DNA of 51,537 bases from assembly GCA_947260035.1 (NCBI GenBank), contig CAMYOO010000008.1, forward strand, positions 1 through 51,537, in the 5' to 3' direction. Numbering within the stretch: position 1 is the stretch's first letter; each line of letters opens with the position of its first letter. Origin of the DNA: an uncultured delta proteobacterium (GTDB taxonomy: Bacteria > Myxococcota_A > UBA9160 > JAFDET01). Below the pieces are notes generated by a model. The model made no database searches and had not been told where the DNA came from. It saw only the letters and a list, made by a program, of their open reading frames with translations. A program made the translations under genes and the position numbers. This document shows positions 990 through 28,926 of this stretch, in pieces.

Positions 990-1028
990 CGGCCCCGGGG
1001 CGCTAAGCGCCTCGGGGCCGTTTCTTTG
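990..1028 (+). terminator. Rho-independent terminator downstream of groEL
   Basis: 14-bp GC-rich stem (cggccccggggcgc / gcgcctcggggccg, one G.U), loop taa, followed by tttctttg. It starts 26 nt after the groEL stop. Confidence 0.75.
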
Positions 1029-1361
1029 CGCGGCTATTCTCAGGCGGCCGAGCCCCTTCGCTCGCCTGCGGCTCGCTGCGCGCGCGGCAGCAGGCTCCTG
1101 CGCACGTCCGGGCCCCGAGGGCCGCGCTTGCGGGCCTCAGGCTCCGGGGACGTATCCGCTTTCCGGCGGGGCTTAGGGCCGGCTTCAGCGCGTTTCCTGG
1201 GGAACCAGCGGGACAGTCACGCCGGCTCCCGGCAGCTAGCGAGGCTGTCCCGCAGGTTTCCGCGCCCCTCGGCCCCCCTCCCCGGGACCTCTCAAGCCGC
1301 GCCAGGCGGCTGCCGAAACGCTCTCTGGGCTCGTTTGCCTTTGTTTTCCAGGGAGTTGCGC

Positions 1362-2714
1362 ATGGATGGGGGCGATGGTGGCCGGCAGGTGGACGCGTTT
1401 CGGCGGCGTCTGGAGGCCATGGAGCTGGACTGCCGCGACGGCCCCGGGGGCCGTTCGCTGCTGGTTCGCCTGACGGCGCGCGGCGGGCCGCTGCCCACGC
1501 CTGCGGGCGATCTAGCCGTGCCCCAGTTCGTGTTCGCCACCGTCGGGGCCAACCGCATCAAGTGCATGGTGCCGCGAGCGCTCTTCTTCCTGCCGCTGAT
1601 CGGAATCGCCGATTGCGACAGCCCCGGCGCCATCGAGGCCCGCATCCGCCAGGCCTGGCGCGAGCGCCAGAACGAGCTGGGTCAGACCCGGCAGTGGCTG
1701 GAGAAGCTGGGCTGCGACGTGAAGCAGCACGCCGAGGTTCCCGTGGCCTTCGTGGAGATCGGCGCTGCGGACCGGCGCTCCGAGCTGGCCGCCGTGGAGC
1801 CCGGCGCCGTGATGCTGCCCAGCGCCGGCCCGCTCTCGGAGTTGACCCTGGAGCGGGCGGAGGATCGCATCTTCCGGCCCGAGGCCGACCTGGACACCGC
1901 CGTCGATCTGGAGATCGCGGCGGGCACGCGCATGGAGGAGTTGGTGCGGCTGCACGACCGACTCGAGCGCCAGGCCCGCGTGCGCGCCTATGCGGCCGAG
2001 CCGGAGAGCGAGCCGGCGTCACGCCACCACCGCATCCTGCTGGTGGGCCGGAGGCTGCTGGGCGACACGGGGCTGATCGAATCCCTGCGCATGCGCGGCT
2101 ACCGGATCGCCGCCGTGCGCGGCGCGGCCGAGGCCCTGGGCGCCTTCGAGCGGCGCTCCTTCGACCTGGTCCTCACCGAATCGGAGCTCGATCGCTTCGA
2201 AGGCATCGAGATGGTGCCGACATTGCGGGCGCTGCCCGGTATCGAGGAGATGCCCATCGTCGTGGTGGACACGCACCTGCGGCCGGAGCTCCGCGAGACG
2301 GCACGCCAGGTGGGCGCCGCCGGCTACGTGACCCACCCCATCGACGTGCCCCTGATCGAGGAAGGCCTGGCGCGCCTGCTCGACTCACCGGGGCGGCGCC
2401 GTTTCCGACGCTACGCGCAGCGCATCGGCGTGCGCGCGGTGGGCGCGTCACGTCCGGAGATCGTGCAGCAGATCAGCCGGGGCGGAATGCTGGTGGTCAG
2501 CGATCGCGAGGTCTCACCGCGCACGCTGCAACGCTTCGCCATCACCCTTCCGGACGGCGCGGGGGCGATCCGCGCCGACGGTGAGGTGGTCTACCGGCTG
2601 CGCTCGAACGGCGCCGGCACCAAGCCGCGCATCGGCGTCCGCTTCGAGCGGTTTCCGGACGACGACGAGCAGCGCCTGATCGCATTCCTGCGGACGCTCG
2701 ACCCGACTTCCTGA
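1362..2714 (+). CDS. Unknown N-terminal domain + atypical (pseudo-)receiver domain + C-terminal PilZ domain
   Basis: ATG at 1362 is preceded by AGGGAG 7 nt upstream. The annotated ORF start at 1026 is TTG and encodes R/P/S-rich junk. The REC-like segment is HRILLVGRR...FDLVLTESEL...PIVVVDTHL...GYVTHPI. The PilZ motifs are RRRFRR (RxxxR) and QISRGG (D/N-x-S-x-x-G-like). Confidence 0.8.
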   Translation: MDGGDGGRQVDAFRRRLEAMELDCRDGPGGRSLLVRLTARGGPLPTPAGDLAVPQFVFATVGANRIKCMVPRALFFLPLIGIADCDSPGAIEARIRQAWRERQNELGQTRQWLEKLGCDVKQHAEVPVAFVEIGAADRRSELAAVEPGAVMLPSAGPLSELTLERAEDRIFRPEADLDTAVDLEIAAGTRMEELVRLHDRLERQARVRAYAAEPESEPASRHHRILLVGRRLLGDTGLIESLRMRGYRIAAVRGAAEALGAFERRSFDLVLTESELDRFEGIEMVPTLRALPGIEEMPIVVVDTHLRPELRETARQVGAAGYVTHPIDVPLIEEGLARLLDSPGRRRFRRYAQRIGVRAVGASRPEIVQQISRGGMLVVSDREVSPRTLQRFAITLPDGAGAIRADGEVVYRLRSNGAGTKPRIGVRFERFPDDDEQRLIAFLRTLDPTS

Positions 2715-2751
2715 CCACGCCACGAGGCGGCGCCCGGCGGCGCCGGCTGGA

Positions 2752-2964
2752 TCAGCCTACCTGCCCCCGGGCGGCGTCGATGTCGCCGTCCATGATGGTC
2801 TTGCGCTTTTCGCTGGCCGCAGAATCCTGGGCCGCGCGGGCCAGCCGTGCGATGTAGTCCTCTACCGCTTGGACGGCCTTGTCCACCGCAGGCCCGGAGA
2901 CCCGGAGCCCACCGCCATGCTTCGCAAGCAGGCGCTTCACCACCGCGTTCGGAAGGTCGGCCAT
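2752..2964 (-). CDS. Histone-fold protein (archaeal HMf-like singlet, 70 aa)
   Basis: ATG at 2964 has GGGAG 7 nt upstream, and two in-frame TGA codons immediately upstream fix the start. The sequence MADLPNAVVKRLLAKHGGGLRVSGPAVDKAVQAVEDYIARLARAAQDSAASEKRKTIMDGDIDAA aligns by eye to HMfB-type histones (LP.A...R.....G..RVS, RKTI...DI..A). Confidence 0.7.
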   Translation of the reverse strand: MADLPNAVVKRLLAKHGGGLRVSGPAVDKAVQAVEDYIARLARAAQDSAASEKRKTIMDGDIDAARGQVG

Positions 2965-3059
2965 TCATCATCTCCCACCCCCCGGTCGAACGCCGCCGAA
3001 CCCATACGACGGGCCGCTGCCGAGGACGCGACCATCCTAGGAGGGCCTGAAAGGCGTTG

Positions 3060-4304
3060 TCAATCGGCCTCGCGCAACGCCGCTCGGGCCGCGTCCTCGG
3101 CCGCCCGGACCACCCGGCGCAGGGGAACCCCATGCTGGCCGGCGGAACGCTTGCAATCGTCGTATTCGGCCGAGACCTCGACGCCGCCATCCGGGTCCCG
3201 GGAGAGCTTCACGCCGATCCGGCCGTAGGGGGTGGCCACCTTGCGGGAGGCCCTGGGCACGACCAGGCGGTCCCATTCGGCGATCCGCACACCCAGGGCG
3301 CTGGACTCGGAGAAGAGGATTTCCGCCAGGGCCTCGCGATCGGAGGGCCGGCCCAGCGCCCGCACCAGGAAGCCCGGCCGGTTCTTCTTGCCCTGGCTGT
3401 GTTGAAGCGAGACGTCCAGGGCGCCGGCCTCGAAGAGCCGTTCCATGAGGTGGTCGAAGTGCTCCGGCACCAGATCGTCCAGGTTGGTCTCGAGCATCAG
3501 GATGCGGTCCCAGGTGGGGCCGCCGTCGCGCCCCAGGACCGCCCGCAGCAGGTTGGGCATGGGCCCCTTGCGGTCGTTGCCGGCACCGTGCCCGATGGCC
3601 TCCACGGTCATGGCGGGAAGGGGACGGAAGGCGTCGACGATCGTCTTCACGATGGCGGCGCCGGTGGGGGTCACGGTCTCCCAGGCCACGTCCGCGGGCA
3701 GCGTCGGAATGCCGCGCAGCAGCTCCAGGGTGGCCGGCGCCGGGAGCGGCAGCCTTCCGTGGTCGGTGTCCACGCTGCCGTGGCCCAGCGCGATGGGGGA
3801 GCAGGTCACCCGCTCGATCCCCAGGCGCTCCAGGGCGATGGCGGCCGCGGTGACGTCGACGATGGCGTCCACGGCTCCCACCTCGTGGAAGTGCACCTTC
3901 TCCAGCGGAATGCCGTGCACCCGGGACTCGGCGCGACCCAGGGCCTGGAAGATCGCCAGGGCCCGCTCGCGCACCGCCGGCGCCAGGCGGGCCGACTCGA
4001 GCACCCCGACCACGTCGCGGTAATGGCGCCCGTGGTGATGATGATGGTGGTGGCCCGCCTTCTTGCGGCGGCGCGGGGCGCTCGGCACCTCGACCCGCAC
4101 GTAGCGCGCGGCCAGCGCGCCCCGGCGCACCTTCGACACGCGCAGCTTGTGCGCGACCTTCAGGCCGGCCAGGTCCGCCTCCAGCTCCTTGCGGGACAGA
4201 CCCGCGTCCAGAAGCGCCCCCATGAACATGTTGCCGGCCACGCCGGAGAAGCAGTCCAGGTGCAGAACCCGCCCCCCGCGCAGCCCGGTCCGACGCGCGG
4301 CCAC
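3060..4304 (-). CDS. larC: Nickel insertion protein LarC (DUF111, nickel-pincer cofactor biosynthesis)
   Basis: LHLDCFSGVAGNMFMGALLDAG..., EKVHFHEVGAVDAIVDV and an internal GHHHHHHHG tract are typical of LarC. The only in-frame start after the larB stop is GTG at 4304, 2 nt after the larB TAG. The 698-aa ORF in the track is an artefactual upstream extension. Confidence 0.85.
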   Translation of the reverse strand: MAARRTGLRGGRVLHLDCFSGVAGNMFMGALLDAGLSRKELEADLAGLKVAHKLRVSKVRRGALAARYVRVEVPSAPRRRKKAGHHHHHHHGRHYRDVVGVLESARLAPAVRERALAIFQALGRAESRVHGIPLEKVHFHEVGAVDAIVDVTAAAIALERLGIERVTCSPIALGHGSVDTDHGRLPLPAPATLELLRGIPTLPADVAWETVTPTGAAIVKTIVDAFRPLPAMTVEAIGHGAGNDRKGPMPNLLRAVLGRDGGPTWDRILMLETNLDDLVPEHFDHLMERLFEAGALDVSLQHSQGKKNRPGFLVRALGRPSDREALAEILFSESSALGVRIAEWDRLVVPRASRKVATPYGRIGVKLSRDPDGGVEVSAEYDDCKRSAGQHGVPLRRVVRAAEDAARAALREAD

Positions 4305-4306
4305 GG

Positions 4307-5056
4307 CTAGAGGCGGTTGATCAGGGTCGCCACGTAGGCGGCCCCGAACCCGTTGTCGATGTTGACCACCGAGACGTTGGAGGCACAGCTGGTCAGCATG
4401 CCCAGCAGCGCCGCGACACCGCCGAAGGCGGCGCCGTAGCCGACGCTGGTGGGAACGGCGATCACCGGCTTGTCCACCAGCCCGCCCACCACCGTCGGCA
4501 GCGCGCCCTCCATCCCGGCCACCGCGATCAGCACCCGCGCCTCGCGCAGCACGTGGCTGGAGGCCAGCAGGCGGTGCAGCCCGGCAACGCCCACGTCCGC
4601 CAGCTCCTCCACCTTGTTGCCGAAGCGGCGCGCGACACCGGCGGCCTCGCAGGCGACCGGTCGGTCCGAGGTTCCGGCCGACACCACGGCGATGGCTCCC
4701 TTGCCGACCACGGGCGTCTCCGCGGGGCCGTACCAGAGCAGGCGTGAAGTGGGGTCGTAGTCGCCACCCGCCTGCAGCCCCAGCACGCGCTCCGCCGCGT
4801 CGGCCTCGACGCGCGTGGCCAGGACCGATTGGCCCTCCGCCCGCAGCACCCCCACCGCCTCTCCGATCTGCTCCGGGGTCTTGCCCGGGCCGTACACCAC
4901 CTCCGGGAGTCCCTGGCGCAGCGCGCGGTGGGTATCGATGCGCGCGTGGGGCGTGTCCACGAACGGCAGCCGCGCCAGAGCCTCCAGCGCCTGCTCGGGC
5001 TGGGTCTCCCCGCGCTGCACCGCCTCCAGAAGCTCCCTGAGCCGATCGCGATCCAT
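4307..5056 (-). CDS. larB: LarB (PurE-like pyridinium-3,5-biscarboxylic acid mononucleotide synthase)
   Basis: Shows the typical LarB/AIR-carboxylase-like fold signature: ...IAVVSAGTSDRPVACEAAGVARRFG...VLIAVAGMEGALPTVVGGLV..PVIAVPTSVGYG.... Confidence 0.88.
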   Translation of the reverse strand: MDRDRLRELLEAVQRGETQPEQALEALARLPFVDTPHARIDTHRALRQGLPEVVYGPGKTPEQIGEAVGVLRAEGQSVLATRVEADAAERVLGLQAGGDYDPTSRLLWYGPAETPVVGKGAIAVVSAGTSDRPVACEAAGVARRFGNKVEELADVGVAGLHRLLASSHVLREARVLIAVAGMEGALPTVVGGLVDKPVIAVPTSVGYGAAFGGVAALLGMLTSCASNVSVVNIDNGFGAAYVATLINRL

Positions 5057-5152
5057 GGGCGGGGAGTGTAGCGAGGGTTGCTCCGGCTCCAGGACCGCGG
5101 CCTCGGGGCCGGTCGGATGGCCTCCGACTCGTCAATCCGTCCGGACGAGCCG

Positions 5153-6901
5153 TCAATCGCCGGCGGCGGCCCCCGTCACGGGATACGTGTAGAGGGCGGT
5201 CCGCTCGGCGTGCTCCGGCCCTTCCGGGAACTCGCGGTAGTTCCAGCGCCAGCGCTCGACCTGGTATTCGACGACGCGCTCGTCCGGCGGCAGGCCCTGA
5301 TTCGCACGCAGCGCGCAGACCTCGAAGAATTCCTGGACCAGCTCCTGCTTCTCCGGCTTCCGGGCCTGGCGGAGCATCTTGCGATAGCGGCTGCCCTTCA
5401 TCACGCCGATCGCCTCACCGAGCCGGGCTTCGCGGCGCTCGCCGGAGGCGTTCACGCTGTAGACCTGGGGGTAGGTCACGTCCCCGCCGCGCCGGGCGTC
5501 CGAGTACATGCTCATGCGGGTGACCGGGTAGTAGTCGATCCAGAAGACCCAGCAGAAGATGAACACGCAGGCCACGGCCCAGGTCAGCCGCCGCAGGCTC
5601 CGGGCGGGATCCAACGCCATCCCCGCGCCGGCTGGCAGGGCCTCCGGGGCCGGACTCGCCTCCGCACGGACCGGAACGCCCCCGAGCCCGGGCAGGCGGA
5701 GACCCAGCGCCTTCAGCACCCGGTCCCACGGCACGAAGATGAACTGCAGCAGGATCAGATCGAAGAAGAGCACGTTCTGCAGCAGCAGGATCCCGATGTG
5801 CATCGTGAACATGGCCGCTGGAAACACCACCCGCGCGTAGCGGTGGAAGAGCACCAGCCCGTAGGCCACCTCGCCGCCCGCCCCGCAGATGGCCAGGAAC
5901 GTGAAGAGCGCGTCCGGGGCGCCCACACTGGCCAACCACAGGGACACCTCGAAGTCGAACTCCATGGGGTTCAGCGTGTCCCGGTACAGCCAGTAGCGGA
6001 AGCTCTCCGCCGAGAACCAGTCCAGTCCTCCAACGCGCAGCTTGCTCAGTCCGGCGGCCACGTAAGGCAGGGCCAGCGTGCACCAGCACAGGTAGCGACC
6101 CCACGCGTACACCTCCGGGCGGCGGAGCGGCACCGGCGCGCGACCACGCAGCGAGCGCAGCACGTGGTCCAGGCTCCAGCGATCGCCGCAGGGCGTGAAC
6201 GACAGCACCAGCAGCATCAGGCAGGGAATCAGGCCGGTGTGATAGAACCAGCTGTACTGCCGGACCATGGCGCCGAGGATCAGGTACCCCAGCGCGGCGG
6301 CCGGCACCGTCCAGCGCGTCCTCCAGCCCAGGCAGGCCAGGAGCAGGAGGACGACCACGCTCGTCTGGAAGACGGCCAGGGCCGTTGCGCTCGTCACGAG
6401 CCAGTCGAATCCCGGCAACGCGTAGAGAATCGCGATCAGACCGCGCGCCTTGACCATGCCGCGAGGCAGGTCGGCGCTGGTGGGGAGCTCCTCCCAGAGC
6501 GCGCTCACGAGCAGGATGCCGGCCGTCAGCATGCGCATGGCGCCCAGCGATTCGGGCCGGCCGCCCGCCACGAAGCGCGGGTAGAAGCCGGGCCAGGCCA
6601 GCAGCCGCGCCAGCCCCCAGGCGGTCATCGCGAACCCGAAGCCCAGCAGCGCGAATTGCCTGCACGGATCCAGGTAGTGGGCCAGCTCGTGTCGCTCCGG
6701 ACTGATCGCCTTGTGGAGGAAGCCGAGGAAGCGCCGTTCGTAGATGCCCTGCACCAGGTACGGCAGCACCACCAGCGAGAGCACCAGCCACGCCGCGGCG
6801 CCGACGACGGGCCACACCCAGCGGTGCGGGCGAACCGGCGTGGCGTCCAGCGGATCCGGCACTCTACTCCTCCCGCCCGCCTCCGGGGGTCGCGCTTGCA
6901 C
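5153..6901 (-). CDS. Polytopic membrane protein, HTTM (vitamin-K carboxylase-like) domain candidate, with a soluble C-terminal domain
   Basis: Many hydrophobic helices. The segment ESLGAMRMLTAGILLVSALW ... FYHTGLIPCLMLLVLSFTPCGDRWSLDH resembles HTTM-domain proteins. An alternative GTG start at 6862 lies 1 nt after the upstream gene's stop; the ATG at 6901 would overlap that gene by 38 nt. Confidence 0.6.
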   Translation of the reverse strand: MQARPPEAGGRSRVPDPLDATPVRPHRWVWPVVGAAAWLVLSLVVLPYLVQGIYERRFLGFLHKAISPERHELAHYLDPCRQFALLGFGFAMTAWGLARLLAWPGFYPRFVAGGRPESLGAMRMLTAGILLVSALWEELPTSADLPRGMVKARGLIAILYALPGFDWLVTSATALAVFQTSVVVLLLLACLGWRTRWTVPAAALGYLILGAMVRQYSWFYHTGLIPCLMLLVLSFTPCGDRWSLDHVLRSLRGRAPVPLRRPEVYAWGRYLCWCTLALPYVAAGLSKLRVGGLDWFSAESFRYWLYRDTLNPMEFDFEVSLWLASVGAPDALFTFLAICGAGGEVAYGLVLFHRYARVVFPAAMFTMHIGILLLQNVLFFDLILLQFIFVPWDRVLKALGLRLPGLGGVPVRAEASPAPEALPAGAGMALDPARSLRRLTWAVACVFIFCWVFWIDYYPVTRMSMYSDARRGGDVTYPQVYSVNASGERREARLGEAIGVMKGSRYRKMLRQARKPEKQELVQEFFEVCALRANQGLPPDERVVEYQVERWRWNYREFPEGPEHAERTALYTYPVTGAAAGD

Positions 6902-7693: not shown

Positions 7694-8254
7694 CTACTCC
7701 AGGACCAGGACCAGGTAGCCCTGGACTTCGCGGGTGCCGTCGTAGATGGGAGACTCCAGCAGCAGCCGCTCGGGCTCGCCGGCGCGCCACGAGACCACCG
7801 AGCCCAGCGCGGCGGGCACGGCCTCCTCGGTGAGCACCGGGATCGAGGGCAGCACCACCGCGCCCAATGTGTCGGCAATGGCCGACGCATAGTGCGAGAC
7901 CAGCATGTTGCCCGCCTCGCGCACCGCCGACTCCACGGCGGACTCCAGCTCGTAGGCCTCGGCGCCCATCATCTCGGTCACGATCACTTCCAGCGACGCG
8001 CGGGAGAAGACCACGGCCATCATGCCGCCCACGCCGCCCTGGAGCTCGAAGAAGATCGCCGTGCCGTCCTCGGCCAGAGCCGCGGCGCGCGGAACGGTTT
8101 CGGCGTCGACAGGCTGCGCTCGAGGCGCGTCCATCCAGATGGTCCGGTTGATCAGGCGCGCGAGCGCGCCGGCCGCATGACCCGCTCCGATGCTGGCCAG
8201 CTCTCGCGCGCGGTCGAGCCGGGGCGGCTGCACTTCCGGCGAGAGCTCGCTCAT
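7694..8254 (-). CDS. CheC/CheX/FliY-family CheY-P phosphatase-like protein
   Basis: Two copies of the family motif at exact spacing: DRARELAS-x22-P (Asn replaced by Ser) and SAVREAGN-x22-P (canonical S-x3-E-x2-N-x22-P). ATGA overlap with the cheA stop. Confidence 0.8.
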   Translation of the reverse strand: MSELSPEVQPPRLDRARELASIGAGHAAGALARLINRTIWMDAPRAQPVDAETVPRAAALAEDGTAIFFELQGGVGGMMAVVFSRASLEVIVTEMMGAEAYELESAVESAVREAGNMLVSHYASAIADTLGAVVLPSIPVLTEEAVPAALGSVVSWRAGEPERLLLESPIYDGTREVQGYLVLVLE

Positions 8255-9387
8255 ACCAGCTGCCCCACGTCCAGCAGGAAGACCGGCCGGCCGTCGCCCA
8301 GCACCGTGAGGCCGGCCAGCGTGCGCAGCCCTGCAAAGAGCGGCGGTACCGGCTTCACGTAGATTTCCTGCTGGCCGTCGAAGCCGTCGGTGCGCAGCGC
8401 CACCCGTTGACCCCGCAGCTCGACGATGGCCAGGGCCGCCAGGGCGGGCCGCTCACCGCGCCGGGCCCAGCCCAGGCAGTCCGCCAGGTCCAGCACCAGC
8501 AGCGGCTCGTCGTCCACCATCACGAAGGCCTCCTGTCCGGCCTCCTCGATTTCCGATTCGGGCACCTCGACGAGCCGCTCCACCTTGGAAACGGAAAGCG
8601 CCACCGCTTCACCCGCCGCCTCGACCAGCAGCACGCGCTGCACCGCGGCGGTCACCGGCACCACCAGCGCGGTCGAAGTCCCGTGACCGGGCTCGCTGGC
8701 GATCTCGATGTGCCCGCCGAGACTTTCGATGGTGGTCTTCACCGCATCCATGCCGACGCCGCGGCCGGAGATTTCGGAAACACGACCCGCCGTGGAGAGA
8801 CCCGGCCGGAACACCATGGCCGCGATCTCTTCCGGCGGCAGGTCGTCGGCCAGGTCCGGATGGATGATGCCGGCCGTGACGGCCCGGGCGCGCACGCCGT
8901 CCAGGTCGATCCCGCGCCCGTCGTCCGACACGGCGATGCGGATCGAATCGCGTTCGCGGCGCGCGGCGATCTCGATGCGCCCGATCTCCGGCTTCCCCGA
9001 AGCGCGCCGATCCTCGGGCGACTCGATTCCATGATCCACGGCGTTGCGGACCAGATGGCCCAGGGGATCAGCCAGACGGTCCAGGATCGAGCGGTCCAGC
9101 TCCAGCTCGGCCCCGCTGATCTCCACCTCGACCTGACGGCCGCAGCGCTGCGCCACGTCTCGAGCGACCCGCGGCAGCGTGTCGATCACCCGCAGCAAGG
9201 GTGTGGTGCGAAGCGCCATGGCGCGCCGCTGCAGCTCGCCCACCACGCGCTCCATGCGGTCGAAGCCGGTGGTCAGCGCTCCGCGCCGCGGACTCTCCTG
9301 GGTGGCCGCGGTCGTGCGCAGCTGATTGGTGCTGAGGATCACTTCGCCGACGGCGGAGAGGAAGCGATCGAGGGTATCGGTGCGCAC
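8251..9387 (-). CDS. cheA: CheA histidine kinase core (P3 dimerisation, P4 HATPase, P5 CheW-like); frame stays open upstream to the A8 run at 9495-9502
   Basis: N box HLVRNAVDHGIE, G1 DDGRGID, G2 GRGVGMD, and a C-terminal CheW-like domain. The first in-frame start (GTG 9387) falls inside the conserved P3 opening (VRVRTDTLDRF). The upstream in-frame sequence encodes a P/A-rich linker with no stop. Confidence 0.9.
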   Translation of the reverse strand: MRTDTLDRFLSAVGEVILSTNQLRTTAATQESPRRGALTTGFDRMERVVGELQRRAMALRTTPLLRVIDTLPRVARDVAQRCGRQVEVEISGAELELDRSILDRLADPLGHLVRNAVDHGIESPEDRRASGKPEIGRIEIAARRERDSIRIAVSDDGRGIDLDGVRARAVTAGIIHPDLADDLPPEEIAAMVFRPGLSTAGRVSEISGRGVGMDAVKTTIESLGGHIEIASEPGHGTSTALVVPVTAAVQRVLLVEAAGEAVALSVSKVERLVEVPESEIEEAGQEAFVMVDDEPLLVLDLADCLGWARRGERPALAALAIVELRGQRVALRTDGFDGQQEIYVKPVPPLFAGLRTLAGLTVLGDGRPVFLLDVGQLV

Positions 9388-9482
9388 CCGTACCTGCGGC
9401 GGCGGGACCGGGGCCGTCGGACTCTCGGAGGCGCCGGCGTCCGACGTCGGCGCGGCGGCCCGCGCGGGCGGCTCTGCGCCGC

Positions 9483-9890
9483 CTAGATCAGAGCTTTTTT
9501 TTCGGTGTCGTCCGCTTCGGAAGGAGACTCGAGGGCCGCCAGGAGCGCGGCGTCTCCGTCCGGCGCGTCTCCGGTTTCCGCCACGCTGGCCAGCATGGCT
9601 TCGAGCACTTCGAGGCCGCGGAAGAGCAAGGGCAGGTCGTCGGCGCTGCCGATGCGGCCGGCCGTGCGGACCGATTCCATGCGGTCCTCCAGGCGGTGCG
9701 CGAGCAGCGAGATCGACTCGTACTCCAGCGAGGCCGCCATGCTCTTCATGGAGTGGACCATGCGGAACACGGTCTCGATGGACGGGCGGGACGCCGGATC
9801 CTTCTCCAGCTCCAGCAGTGAGCGGCTCATCTCGGCGAGGTTCTCGATGCCCTCTTCCAGGAAGAGCGCCCGATACTTCGTCATGTCCAC
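9483..9890 (-). CDS. cheA: CheA P1 (Hpt) domain, terminated 3 codons after an A8 run
   Basis: Hpt signature FRMVHSMKSMAASL (phospho-His). The ORF ends ...ADDTEKKALI*. The kinase frame is the -1 frame relative to this ORF. Confidence 0.9.
   Translation of the reverse strand: MDMTKYRALFLEEGIENLAEMSRSLLELEKDPASRPSIETVFRMVHSMKSMAASLEYESISLLAHRLEDRMESVRTAGRIGSADDLPLLFRGLEVLEAMLASVAETGDAPDGDAALLAALESPSEADDTEKKALI
9495..9502 (-). repeat. A8 homopolymer (T8 on + strand) forming A-AAA-AAA-G in the Hpt frame; candidate slippage or indel site
   Basis: Read directly: gag c tttttttt cgg on the + strand. No comparable A/T run was noticed elsewhere in coding sequence of this window. Confidence 0.95.
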
Positions 9891-9894
9891 GAGA

Positions 9895-10266
9895 TCAGTC
9901 CTGCTTCTCGAGCGCCTTGCGAAGCGTGACGACCACGGCGTCCGGCTTGAACGGCTTCACGATGAAGTCCGACGCACCGGCCTTGAGCGCTTCCATGACC
10001 AGGGCTTCCTGGCCGAGTGCGCTGCACATGACGATCTTTGCGCCCGGGTCGAGCTGGATGATCTGCTTGACCGCCTCGATGCCCGACATCTTCGGCATCA
10101 CGATGTCCATCGTGACGATGTCCGGACTGTGTTCCTTGAACGCCGTCACCGCGTCGGTGCCGTCGCCGGCCTCCGCAATCACATCGAAGCCCTCGGGCTC
10201 GATGATCTCGCGGATCATCTCACGCATGAACGATGCGTCGTCCGCCACCAAGGTTCTCGCCTTCAT
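9895..10266 (-). CDS. cheY: CheY response regulator (single REC domain)
   Basis: [13 protein letters not shown]...DIVTMDIVMPKMSG...IVMCSALG...DFIVKPF has all canonical REC residues. GGGGGAGG sits 4 nt upstream of ATG 10266. ATGA overlap with the cheW stop. Confidence 0.93.
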   Translation of the reverse strand: MKARTLVADDASFMREMIREIIEPEGFDVIAEAGDGTDAVTAFKEHSPDIVTMDIVMPKMSGIEAVKQIIQLDPGAKIVMCSALGQEALVMEALKAGASDFIVKPFKPDAVVVTLRKALEKQD

Positions 10267-10751
10267 GTCGCCTCCCCCCACTGTTCGGATTCGTTGAAAC
10301 CAGGCTCGGCCGAGCGGGCCACCAGCGCCGCCGCTCGATCGCACAGGTACTGCGCATCCAGGATCCCGATGACGCGCCCGTCGATGGGAAGCCGCGCCGT
10401 CACCGGCTCCGGCTGCCGGCTGGCCGGCGGCGGTGCGTTCACCAGGCCCAGCACGCGACCCACCGGAAGTCCAAGGCGCGGCGTATCGCCACCGTCGGCC
10501 GCCACCACCACCACGTGCTCGGGCAGCGCGCCCTCTTCAGCAGCCACGTCCAGCAACGCTGACGGGGAGACGATGGGCAGGGCGTCGCCGTGGTAGTGCA
10601 TGACGCCGCCCAGTGAGCGCGGCAGGCTGGGCACCGGCCCGATGCGCCCCACCTCGGTCACCTCGAACACGTCGAGGATCGGCAGGGCGAACGGGGAGCC
10701 ACTCACCTCGAAGGTCAGCCAGCGCTCGTCGCGAGGTTCGGACGCGCTCAC
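10263..10751 (-). CDS. cheW: CheW coupling protein
   Basis: CheW-like domain ([21 protein letters not shown]...[19 protein letters not shown]). GTGA overlap with the MCP stop. Confidence 0.85.
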
Positions 10752-12049
10752 GGCGTCTCCTCCGAGCCGCCGGTCCGGAAGCTCTGCAGCACGCCGCGCA
10801 GCTCGTCGGACAGACCGGTCACGCTCTGGGTCGAGCTCACCAGCTCTTCCATGGCAGCGAGCTGCTCGCCGGTGGTCTCCACCACTTCCTCGGTGGCCTT
10901 GGCGTTCCCCGCCGCCACACGCGCGATCTCGTCCATGGAGGACACCATCCGCGACGCGTCCCGGGTCTGGGTATCCGCCTTCAAGAAGATCTCCTCGGCG
11001 CGGTCCGACGCCTCACCGACGGCCGAGGCAATGTGCTCCAGGGACGACGCGATGGTGTTCACGTCGTCGCGGCCCTCGTTGATCACCTGGCCGGACATGC
11101 GCATCTCGTCGGCCACTTCCTGGGTGTCGGTCTGGATCTCGTGGATGAGCTTCGAGATCTCCTCACCACTGCGAGTCGCGTTCTCGGCCAGCTTGCGGAT
11201 CTCGTCGGCCACCACGGAGAAGCCGCGCCCGGCCTCTCCGGCGCGAGCCGCTTCGATGGAGGCATTGAGCGAGAGCAGGTTCGTGCGCTGGGCGACGCCG
11301 GTGATGATCTCCAGGATCTGGTGCACCTGACCGGTCTTCTCTTCCAGCGTGAAGACCTTGGCGCCCGACTGCTCGACCCGTTCGAATACGGTGCGCATCT
11401 TCTCCAGCGCCAGCCGCGAGACGTTGACGCCGGTGTTTGCCTTCTGGTTGGCTTCAGCCGCAAAGCCGAAGGCCTCGCGCGCCCGCGAAGCGTTCTCCTC
11501 GATGGCGCGGGCGATCTCGCCGATCAGGCCGCTGGCCTCCAGGAGCATCGCCTGCTCCTGGGACACGCTGCTCGCCAAGCCGGACACGGTGCTGGAGATT
11601 CCCTCGTTGTTGGACGAGAGCTCCTGTGCGGAACGAGCCAGATCCTGGGCGGCCGTGGAGGCGCGATCCGCGGTGGTCTGCACGTGGCCCACCAGCTCGC
11701 GCAGTCGCGCGGCCATGGCCTGGATGCTGCGCGCCAGGTCGTGGGTCTCGTCTTCGAAGCGGCCCGAACGCACGTCGACGCGCGCAGTCAGGTCGCCGCC
11801 GGAGATGCGATCGGTGGCACTGCGCAGCGACTGGAAGTTGTCTGTCAGCTCGCGGGACAGGAAGAAGCCCATCACCCCGCCCAGGCCGAGCGCGGCGAAG
11901 AACGAAACCCACGGCGCCACGGGAATTCCGAAGGCACCCACCAGACCCGGGAAGCCGATGGCGGCGGCGGCCAGGCACGTGGAGCCCAGCACGAACTTGT
12001 ACGTGAGCGAGAGACGCACCCCGGGCTCATCGGCAGCCGATCTGCCCAT
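10748..12049 (-). CDS. Methyl-accepting chemotaxis protein: 2 TM helices with a ~6-residue loop, HAMP, and signalling domain
   Basis: Highly conserved MCP hairpin tip: [42 protein letters not shown]. The two adjacent TM helices leave no room for a periplasmic sensor domain. Confidence 0.92.
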
Positions 12050-12100
12050 CTTGACGAAATTACCCAGGAATTCCGGGTGTCTGGAGCTCCGGTCAAAGCC

Positions 12101-28850: not shown

Positions 28851-28926
28851 GGCCCGGTAGCTCAGTTGGTAGAGCACGCGACTGAAAATCGCGGTGTCGA
28901 CAGTTCGATTCTGTCCTGGGCCACCA
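28851..28926 (+). tRNA. tRNA-Phe (GAA), CCA encoded
   Basis: Cloverleaf folded by hand: acceptor ggcccgg/ctgggcc (one G.U), D-arm agctcagttggtagagc, anticodon stem cgcga/tcgcg with loop ctGAAaa, T-arm gacag-ttcgatt-ctgtc, discriminator A, then CCA. Confidence 0.93.

Follow-up and report, generated by a model that had tools for sequence, protein, structure and literature searches.

The window, the whole 51,537-nucleotide stretch of DNA analyzed here, encodes a 70-aa singlet histone-fold protein that, as a monomer, has the canonical nucleosomal-type length and the architecture of the archaeal histones that wrap DNA. It belongs to a bacterial host and differs from the alpha3-truncated type (HBb dimers, HLp/FtF tetramers) that is typical of bacteria in the literature. 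Its ORF occupies positions 2752..2964 of the minus strand, as given by the ORF listing and the sequence, and the translated protein reads MADLPNAVVKRLLAKHGGGLRVSGPAVDKAVQAVEDYIARLARAAQDSAASEKRKTIMDGDIDAARGQVG. The gene and its translation start are laid out as follows:

2752..2964, minus strand: histone-fold gene, with the ATG at 2964-2962 and 70 codons followed by TGA at 2754-2752
2965-2971, minus strand: spacer between the Shine-Dalgarno motif and the ATG, containing two in-frame TGA codons
2972..2976, minus strand: Shine-Dalgarno motif GGGAG, 7 nt 5' of the ATG, read from the sequence

An earlier note on this DNA had described a well-defined start, with GGGAG 7 nt upstream and two in-frame TGA codons, and had placed the gene 95 nt downstream of larC on the same strand. 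Both descriptions are borne out: the larC ORF ends at 3060, 95 nt from the histone ATG, and no longer start is possible because the two codons directly upstream in frame (2970-2968 and 2967-2965) are TGA. Shine-Dalgarno motifs of the GGAGG/GGGAG type lie at the equivalent place in the orthologous histone loci. The GC content by codon position (0.76/0.48/0.82) is the coding pattern typical of a contig with 70% GC. Over 390 ortholog pairs, drawn from the window gene and 28 orthologous genes, the median pairwise dN/dS is 0.17 (dN 0.19, dS 1.10). The ORF is thus a protein-coding gene under purifying selection.

The product is a real singlet histone-fold protein: profile searches, structure prediction and fold search concur on the singlet, HMf-like histone fold that had been proposed from the sequence. 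Both Pfam families concerned exceed their gathering cut-offs, PF00808 (CBFD_NFYB_HMF) with 39.1 bits against 21.4 and PF00125 (Histone) with 39.6 bits against 26.4. An AlphaFold2 model built from a shallow family alignment of 47 close relatives has a pLDDT of 92.5 and predicts helices at residues 6-16 (11 aa), 24-51 (28 aa) and 59-69 (11 aa), a helix(11)-loop-helix(28)-loop-helix(11) architecture in a single chain. All 50 matches listed in a Foldseek search of this model against the PDB are histone-fold chains. Query-normalized TM scores reach 0.84-0.88 for NF-YB, HHoB, HPhA and HMfA at an rmsd of 1.2-1.9 Å, and up to 0.90 when normalized by target length; the match to HBb has a TM score of 0.56 and an rmsd of 3.2 Å. 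Eukaryotic NF-YB/NF-YC and core histone H3 rank high in the Foldseek and profile searches and have the three-helix histone fold in common with the window protein, but they are obligate heterodimers with extra helices or tails, whereas the window protein is a bare singlet encoded by a single-copy gene.

We compared the protein with HMfB, position by position, over 126 family members. The HMfB sequence used in the earlier note is correct, the HMfB sequence of the present comparison being 100% identical to PDB 1a7w, and the aligned R11, R21-V-S and R54-K55-T56...D61 are real. The DNA-contact and loop-clamp roles of the corresponding HMfB residues are established (PMC10627809, PMC11390915). The correspondences are:

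HMfB R10: R11 in the window protein, invariant in the 126 relatives
HMfB R19 (sprocket arginine): R21, invariant in the 126 relatives
HMfB R52-K53-T54: R54-K55-T56, invariant in the 126 relatives
HMfB D59: D61, invariant in the 126 relatives
HMfB L46: position 48, S in 104 relatives and A in 22
HMfB H49: position 51, A/S/G/D/E
HMfB L62: position 64, K in 64 relatives, A in 45, otherwise T or S

The retention of the DNA-contacting residues (the helix-1 arginine, RVS, RKT and the R-T-D type motif), noticed earlier in the single sequence, therefore extends to the whole family. The complete set of invariant positions comprises P5, A7, V8, K10, R11, R21, A26, A33, E35, R40, A42, A45, A49, R54, K55, T56, M58 and D61. 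The family is basic, with a median pI of 9.45 and a net charge of +2 or +3 across the 126 relatives.

Several comparisons place the protein next to the canonical histones of archaea. Total and helix lengths equal those of HMfB/HMfA (1a7w, 1b67), HPhA (1ku5) and HHoB (9qv5), with an alpha2 of 28 aa and an alpha3 of about 11 aa; the observed 28 and 11 aa agree with the ~28 and ~10 aa given for nucleosomal, HMf-type histones (PMC11390915). The counterparts of HMfB R10, R19-V-S, R52-K53-T54 and D59 are all retained, so that of the nucleosomal features the DNA contacts and the R52-D59 clamp (R11, R21, K55, T56, R54 and D61 here) are invariant in the 126 relatives, while the positions of the four-helix bundle diverge, with S/A for L46, a variable residue for H49 and K/A for L62. 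The earlier description as HMf-like thus stands for the canonical archaeal length and the DNA-contact residues; the HMfB tetramerization residues are absent. Further differences from the archaeal proteins are the bacterial host, an L1 loop longer by one residue (H16-G-G-G-L) and an invariant Met in place of HMfB K56. The best sequence matches in the PDB are Asgard HHoB (9qv5, identified as such through bioRxiv 10.1101/2025.05.24.653377), Methanococcales HmvA, the M. kandleri doublet and HPhA, all of which align without a gap in alpha2. NCBIfam NF043032 (archaea_histone) matches the protein end to end with 43.6 bits, below its cut-off of 50.

Known bacterial histones are more distant. Bacterial singlets are described as having a shorter alpha2, which is called diagnostic, and as having lost the sprocket arginine R19 (PMC10627809); in the alpha3 family, which includes the FtF histones and the bacterial dimers, alpha3 has 3-4 residues and alpha2 is 4-5 residues shorter (PMC11390915). 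The window protein shows neither the shorter alpha2 nor the reduced alpha3 of HBb, and since it does not fit the structural definitions (PMC10627809, PMC11390915), it is not an alpha3 histone. Nucleosomal histones, in turn, have been stated to be exclusive to archaea (PMC11390915). Profile comparisons agree: hhalign pairs the family with HPhA at a probability of 95.5 (score 44.4, 64 columns) and with HBb at 84.7 (score 31.6, 51 columns, with a four-residue gap in alpha2). The core-family HMM gives 37.7 bits to an MSBL1 archaeal histone, 35.5 to HmvA, 33.8 to HPhA and 30.2 to HHoB, and 19.6, 20.2 and 8.3 bits to HMfB, HBb and HTkC. HBb relatives score a median of 20.3 bits with this HMM, whereas four of the five canonical histones from archaea that were tested reach 30-38 bits, and the HBb-family HMM in its turn gives the window family a median of 14.9 bits. 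HBb (8fvx/8cmp), HTkC (9f2c) and HLp (9qt0) are absent from the PDB sequence matches of the window protein at E<=10; with HBb as the query (sequence checked against 8fvx), HTkC and HLp are recovered. By HMM cross-scores and PDB matches, then, the family does not cluster with HBb.

HBb/Bd0055 of Bdellovibrio bacteriovorus (8fvx, 8cmp, 9ezz) is likewise a bacterial basic singlet without tetramerization residues. It has the alpha1 motif V-K-[KR]-L-[IL] and the L2 motif RKT[IV]M in common with the window family; this alpha1 motif and the Met after RKT[IV] are not found in the archaeal proteins compared. HBb differs in its alpha2, which is four residues shorter, its rudimentary alpha3, its total length of 64 aa and its lack of a sprocket arginine (PMC10627809). 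The FtF histones HLp of Leptospira perolatii (9qt0) and HTkC of Thermococcus kodakarensis (9f2c) possess the same fold and the RxTxxxxD motif, but are alpha3-truncated, whereas the window protein has a full-length alpha3. FtF histones are reported in Myxococcota (PMC11390915, PMC12701072). Their torus tetramer uses a conserved Arg at -6 and Asn at -2 relative to the RxT arginine and lacks the Lys of RKT (PMC11390915); in the 126 relatives position 48 is S/A, position 52 is D (51), N (49) or E (23), and K55 is invariant. The pseudodimeric DUF1931 histones (PF09123) are matched with 18.7 bits, below the cut-off of 21.8, and the window protein is a single 70-aa fold, not a doublet. The full-length alpha2 and alpha3 therefore set the protein apart from both the Bd0055/HBb and the Leptospira type, the bacterial cases that the earlier note had cited.

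A protein database search yielded 295 clusters at 90% identity, 69-76 aa long, some of whose members already carry labels such as 'histone H3/H4' (JGI) or 'histone-like protein [Myxococcota bacterium]' (NCBI). A genome scan found the gene in 28 species-representative genomes, all of them MAGs; every family member is known from a MAG or a metagenome. The 28 MAGs are mostly labelled Myxococcota, Myxococcales or Deltaproteobacteria, one of them, OZ245002.1, being a chromosome of 5.83 Mb. Three carry the label 'Spirochaetales' and one 'Desulfobacterales', and a further one only 'bacterium'. These Spirochaetales and Desulfobacterales labels are probably wrong, the MAGs belonging to the same lineage as the others. 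The three loci labelled 'uncultured Spirochaetales' (L003, L009, L027) and the Desulfobacterales one (L002) display the same larB-larC-histone synteny as the rest; the groEL of the former three is 83-87% identical to that of the window, and L002 gave no groEL match. The bacterial host is supported by the groEL, larBC and che genes of the 70% GC contig, and the gene order recurs in the 28 Myxococcota/Deltaproteobacteria-type MAGs. Relatives of the family were searched for on viral contigs and none was found, and a tblastn search with E. coli HU, at the level of loci rather than whole genomes, gave no match in the window or the related loci.

The surroundings of the gene in the window are the following:

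1026-2714, plus strand: response-regulator/PilZ ORF, with a receiver domain at residues 350-444 and a C-terminal PilZ domain at 457-555
3060-5056, minus strand: larB (AIRC domain) and larC (Ni_insertion, 443 bits), overlapping by a few bases
5153-6901, minus strand: 582-aa ORF adjoining larB, GC3 0.91, with no Pfam match at E<=1e-5
7694-12100, minus strand: chemotaxis-type cluster of a CheC/CheX-like phosphatase, an Hpt-domain protein and an MCP with HAMP

Wherever the sequence extends sufficiently far upstream (26 loci), larB, larC and the histone gene follow one another in this order on a single strand, in most cases preceded by a cheC-like gene; in two shorter loci only larC and the histone gene are visible. 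The convergent response-regulator/PilZ gene comes next in 17 of the 28 loci, and groEL is present in 21. Each of the 28 fetched loci has one histone copy. Nine of the 28 genomes carry an extra gene between larC and the histone gene, putatively encoding an alpha/beta-hydrolase. In L009 it spans 5032-5853 and encodes about 270 aa, its identity being read from the sequence; the same place is taken by such a putative hydrolase gene in L011, L014, L016, L018, L019, L022, L025 and L027, and the window is without it. The cheC-like gene of the window belongs to the conserved block upstream of larB. Some minor features of the neighborhood can be recorded here. The window LarC bears a run of seven histidines (HHHHHHH). 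The response-regulator/PilZ ORF has about 340 N-terminal residues without a Pfam match and an uncertain start; its counterparts in the 17 loci are 36-67% identical to it, except for the closest, L001, at 94%. The 582-aa ORF looks like a membrane protein, judging by its hydrophobic sequence. An Rfam and tRNA scan of the window found a single tRNA-Phe at 28851-28926.

Distant relatives, 35-60% identical among themselves and with equal helix lengths, come from MAGs that bear the labels Verrucomicrobiota, Acidobacteria or 'bacterium'. In one group the gene lies by argG and RNase H; another group has genes for an ABC transporter and a PpiC rotamase beside it. No lar genes lie near the histone gene in the distant-relative loci examined. 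In one subgroup (P0148, 'MAG: histone-like protein [bacterium]'; locus L029, 5765-6645, and likewise L030 and L031) the co-oriented RNase H gene begins 4 nt before the histone gene ends, an arrangement suggestive of an operon that would connect the histone with nucleic-acid metabolism.

A candidate promoter lies between larC and the histone gene, and a consensus scan returned it as its one site where 0.1 were expected:

3034..3039, minus strand: -10 element TAGGAT, separated from the -35 element by an 18-nt spacer
3058..3063, minus strand: -35 element TTGACA, overlapping the larC stop codon (3062-3060)

The form TTGACA-N17/18-TAGNAT has no other occurrence on either strand of the 51.5 kb window. 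A motif TTGAC(A/G)-N17/18-TA(G/C)NNT precedes the histone ATG by 50-100 nt in no fewer than 21 of the 28 loci, and the loci that carry the extra hydrolase gene are among them. A relaxed pattern has the site described here as its sole match in the window; over 633 kb (the window and the 28 related loci, both strands) it matches 30 times, and 22 of these 30 matches are histone promoters. Transcription would start near 3027 and leave a 5' UTR of about 60 nt. With a near-consensus promoter of its own and a conserved Shine-Dalgarno motif, the histone gene would constitute an independent transcription unit. The co-transcription with larC that the earlier note had raised as a possibility is not required, because the gene has its own conserved predicted promoter, and nine of the 28 loci have an intervening gene. 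The codon usage of the histone gene is unlike that of groEL (log-likelihood ratio -0.054, like or below bulk genes), and the usual codon signature of very high expression is therefore absent. Codons ending in A or T are concentrated at codons 2-12, which fits an open translation start. A terminator scan of 2600-3300 found none, and a candidate terminator at 2690-2770 was rejected, as its RNA fold is no better than that of shuffled sequences (z 0.47).

We favor, with some reserve, the reading that the protein is a homodimeric, non-specific DNA-binding nucleoid protein that bends or coats DNA and does not form the four-helix bundle of the HMf type. The gene would be transcribed alone, from a strong promoter of the sigma-70 type situated between larC and the histone gene, and its histone-fold product, small, basic (family pI ~9.5) and as long as a canonical archaeal histone, would pair into a handshake homodimer. 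The paired L1/L2 loops, together with the N-termini of alpha1, would let this dimer bind DNA independently of sequence: R21 would act as the minor-groove 'sprocket' arginine, held by T56, and further contacts may come from K55, the R54-D61 loop clamp, K10 and R11. The expected role would be a nucleoid-associated one, bending or compacting DNA in an uncultured Myxococcota lineage. The model for this action is HBb, whose dimers bind and bend DNA (PMC11317129); both HBb and the histones of Leptospira are nucleoid proteins present in large amounts (PMC10627809, PMC11317129, PMC12701072), and the window protein may be abundant as well. Its dimers would act singly or side by side, as for HBb, and would not build a hypernucleosome of the HMf type, because the HMfB bundle residues are replaced by small or charged ones, a dimer-only call that comes down to three alignment positions (48, 51 and 64).

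The same residues and lengths also bear on the possibility of a true nucleosomal histone, whose dimers would assemble on DNA into tetramers or hypernucleosomes and wrap it in the manner of HMfB and HHoB. The canonical alpha2 of 28 aa and alpha3 of 11 aa, the retention of the sprocket arginine and of all RKT/RD-clamp residues, and the fact that the nearest solved relatives are wrapping histones would fit such a protein, as would the invariance of D61, the partner of HMfB H49. We nevertheless regard wrapping as rather improbable: the equivalents of L46, H49 and L62 are S/A, variable and K/A, with positions 51 and 64 not conserved, and the archaea_histone score of 43.6 bits stays under the cut-off of 50. 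If it were true, the protein would be the first nucleosomal-type case in a bacterium. A chance ORF, or an archaeal contaminant in a bacterial bin, has next to no probability left. The ORF is short at 70 aa, and spurious ORFs are common in high-GC DNA; these explanations are refuted by the dN/dS of 0.17 and by the shared position of the gene among bacterial genes in 28 independent assemblies, one of them a closed 5.83 Mb chromosome, and the coding-type codon-position GC and the Pfam matches above threshold speak against them as well.

The gene order raises another alternative, namely that the protein has no nucleoid function and is a specific regulator or a protein-protein module comparable to NF-Y, TAFs or CENP-S/X, possibly tied to the LarB/LarC nickel-pincer genes. 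In its favor, all 28 genomes have the histone gene behind the lar genes in the same orientation, Foldseek ranks NF-YB subunits among its best matches, and the codons used do not point to high expression. However, the entire block (cheC-like gene, larB, larC, histone, convergent response-regulator/PilZ gene, groEL) is syntenic, so the lar linkage looks like inherited gene order. The putative hydrolase gene separates larC from the histone gene in nine of the 28 loci, the histone promoter is kept with and without this insertion, and lar genes are not among the neighbors of the distant relatives that other bacterial MAGs contain. Moreover, all residues for non-specific DNA contact are invariant, and since each locus has one histone copy, no heterodimer partner is evident. 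On balance a regulator or module is unlikely. Functional coupling to larBC in particular was considered and rejected in view of the inserted hydrolase gene, the histone gene's own promoter and the unrelated neighbors of the distant relatives.

That bacterial histones exist is already known, and annotation pipelines label the window family as histone-like. In one survey's scheme, such proteins are reportedly 'undefined' unless a tetramer is predicted. Another survey left singlets longer than 65 aa out of its alpha2 analysis (PMC10627809). Myxococcota are already among the phyla with bacterial histones (PMC11390915, PMC11317129, PMC12701072), and the supplement of Schwab et al. gives histone categories by UniProt accession. 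In the literature we found no conserved bacterial family combining a canonical alpha2 and alpha3 with the sprocket arginine. A database search with HBb for the published Myxococcota histones of Plesiocystis, Enhygromyxa and Nannocystis returned close HBb relatives only, none of them named Myxococcota.

A bolder and more doubtful possibility than the nucleoid dimer is that the family, together with its relatives in the Verrucomicrobiota, Acidobacteria and 'bacterium' MAGs, forms a distinct bacterial class of canonical length and mosaic character, which could be an intermediate between archaeal and bacterial histones or the main chromatin protein of its clade with an undescribed binding mode. 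To judge by the alignments, the mosaic would resemble archaeal histones in its alpha2 and alpha3 length, its sprocket arginine and its RKT motif, and the bacterial alpha3 histones in its VK[KR]L alpha1 motif, its RKTxM L2 motif and its want of bundle residues. As a conserved, vertically inherited bacterial histone of canonical length that keeps the sprocket arginine and lacks the bundle residues, the protein offers a third test case: it could help to identify the sequence features by which a histone comes to bend, coat or wrap DNA, and to clarify the relationship between bacterial and archaeal histones.

One more observation concerns the C-terminus. Some relatives end in short Ser/Pro/Glu-rich tails with an aromatic or hydrophobic last residue (...SPY, ...SSSSF, ...STSF, ...SPF); they include the core members P0033, P0082, P0088, P0102 and P0113 and the wider relatives P0143, P0154 and P0160. 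The window protein is without such a tail. These tails are reminiscent of the acidic C-terminal docking tip of bacterial SSB.
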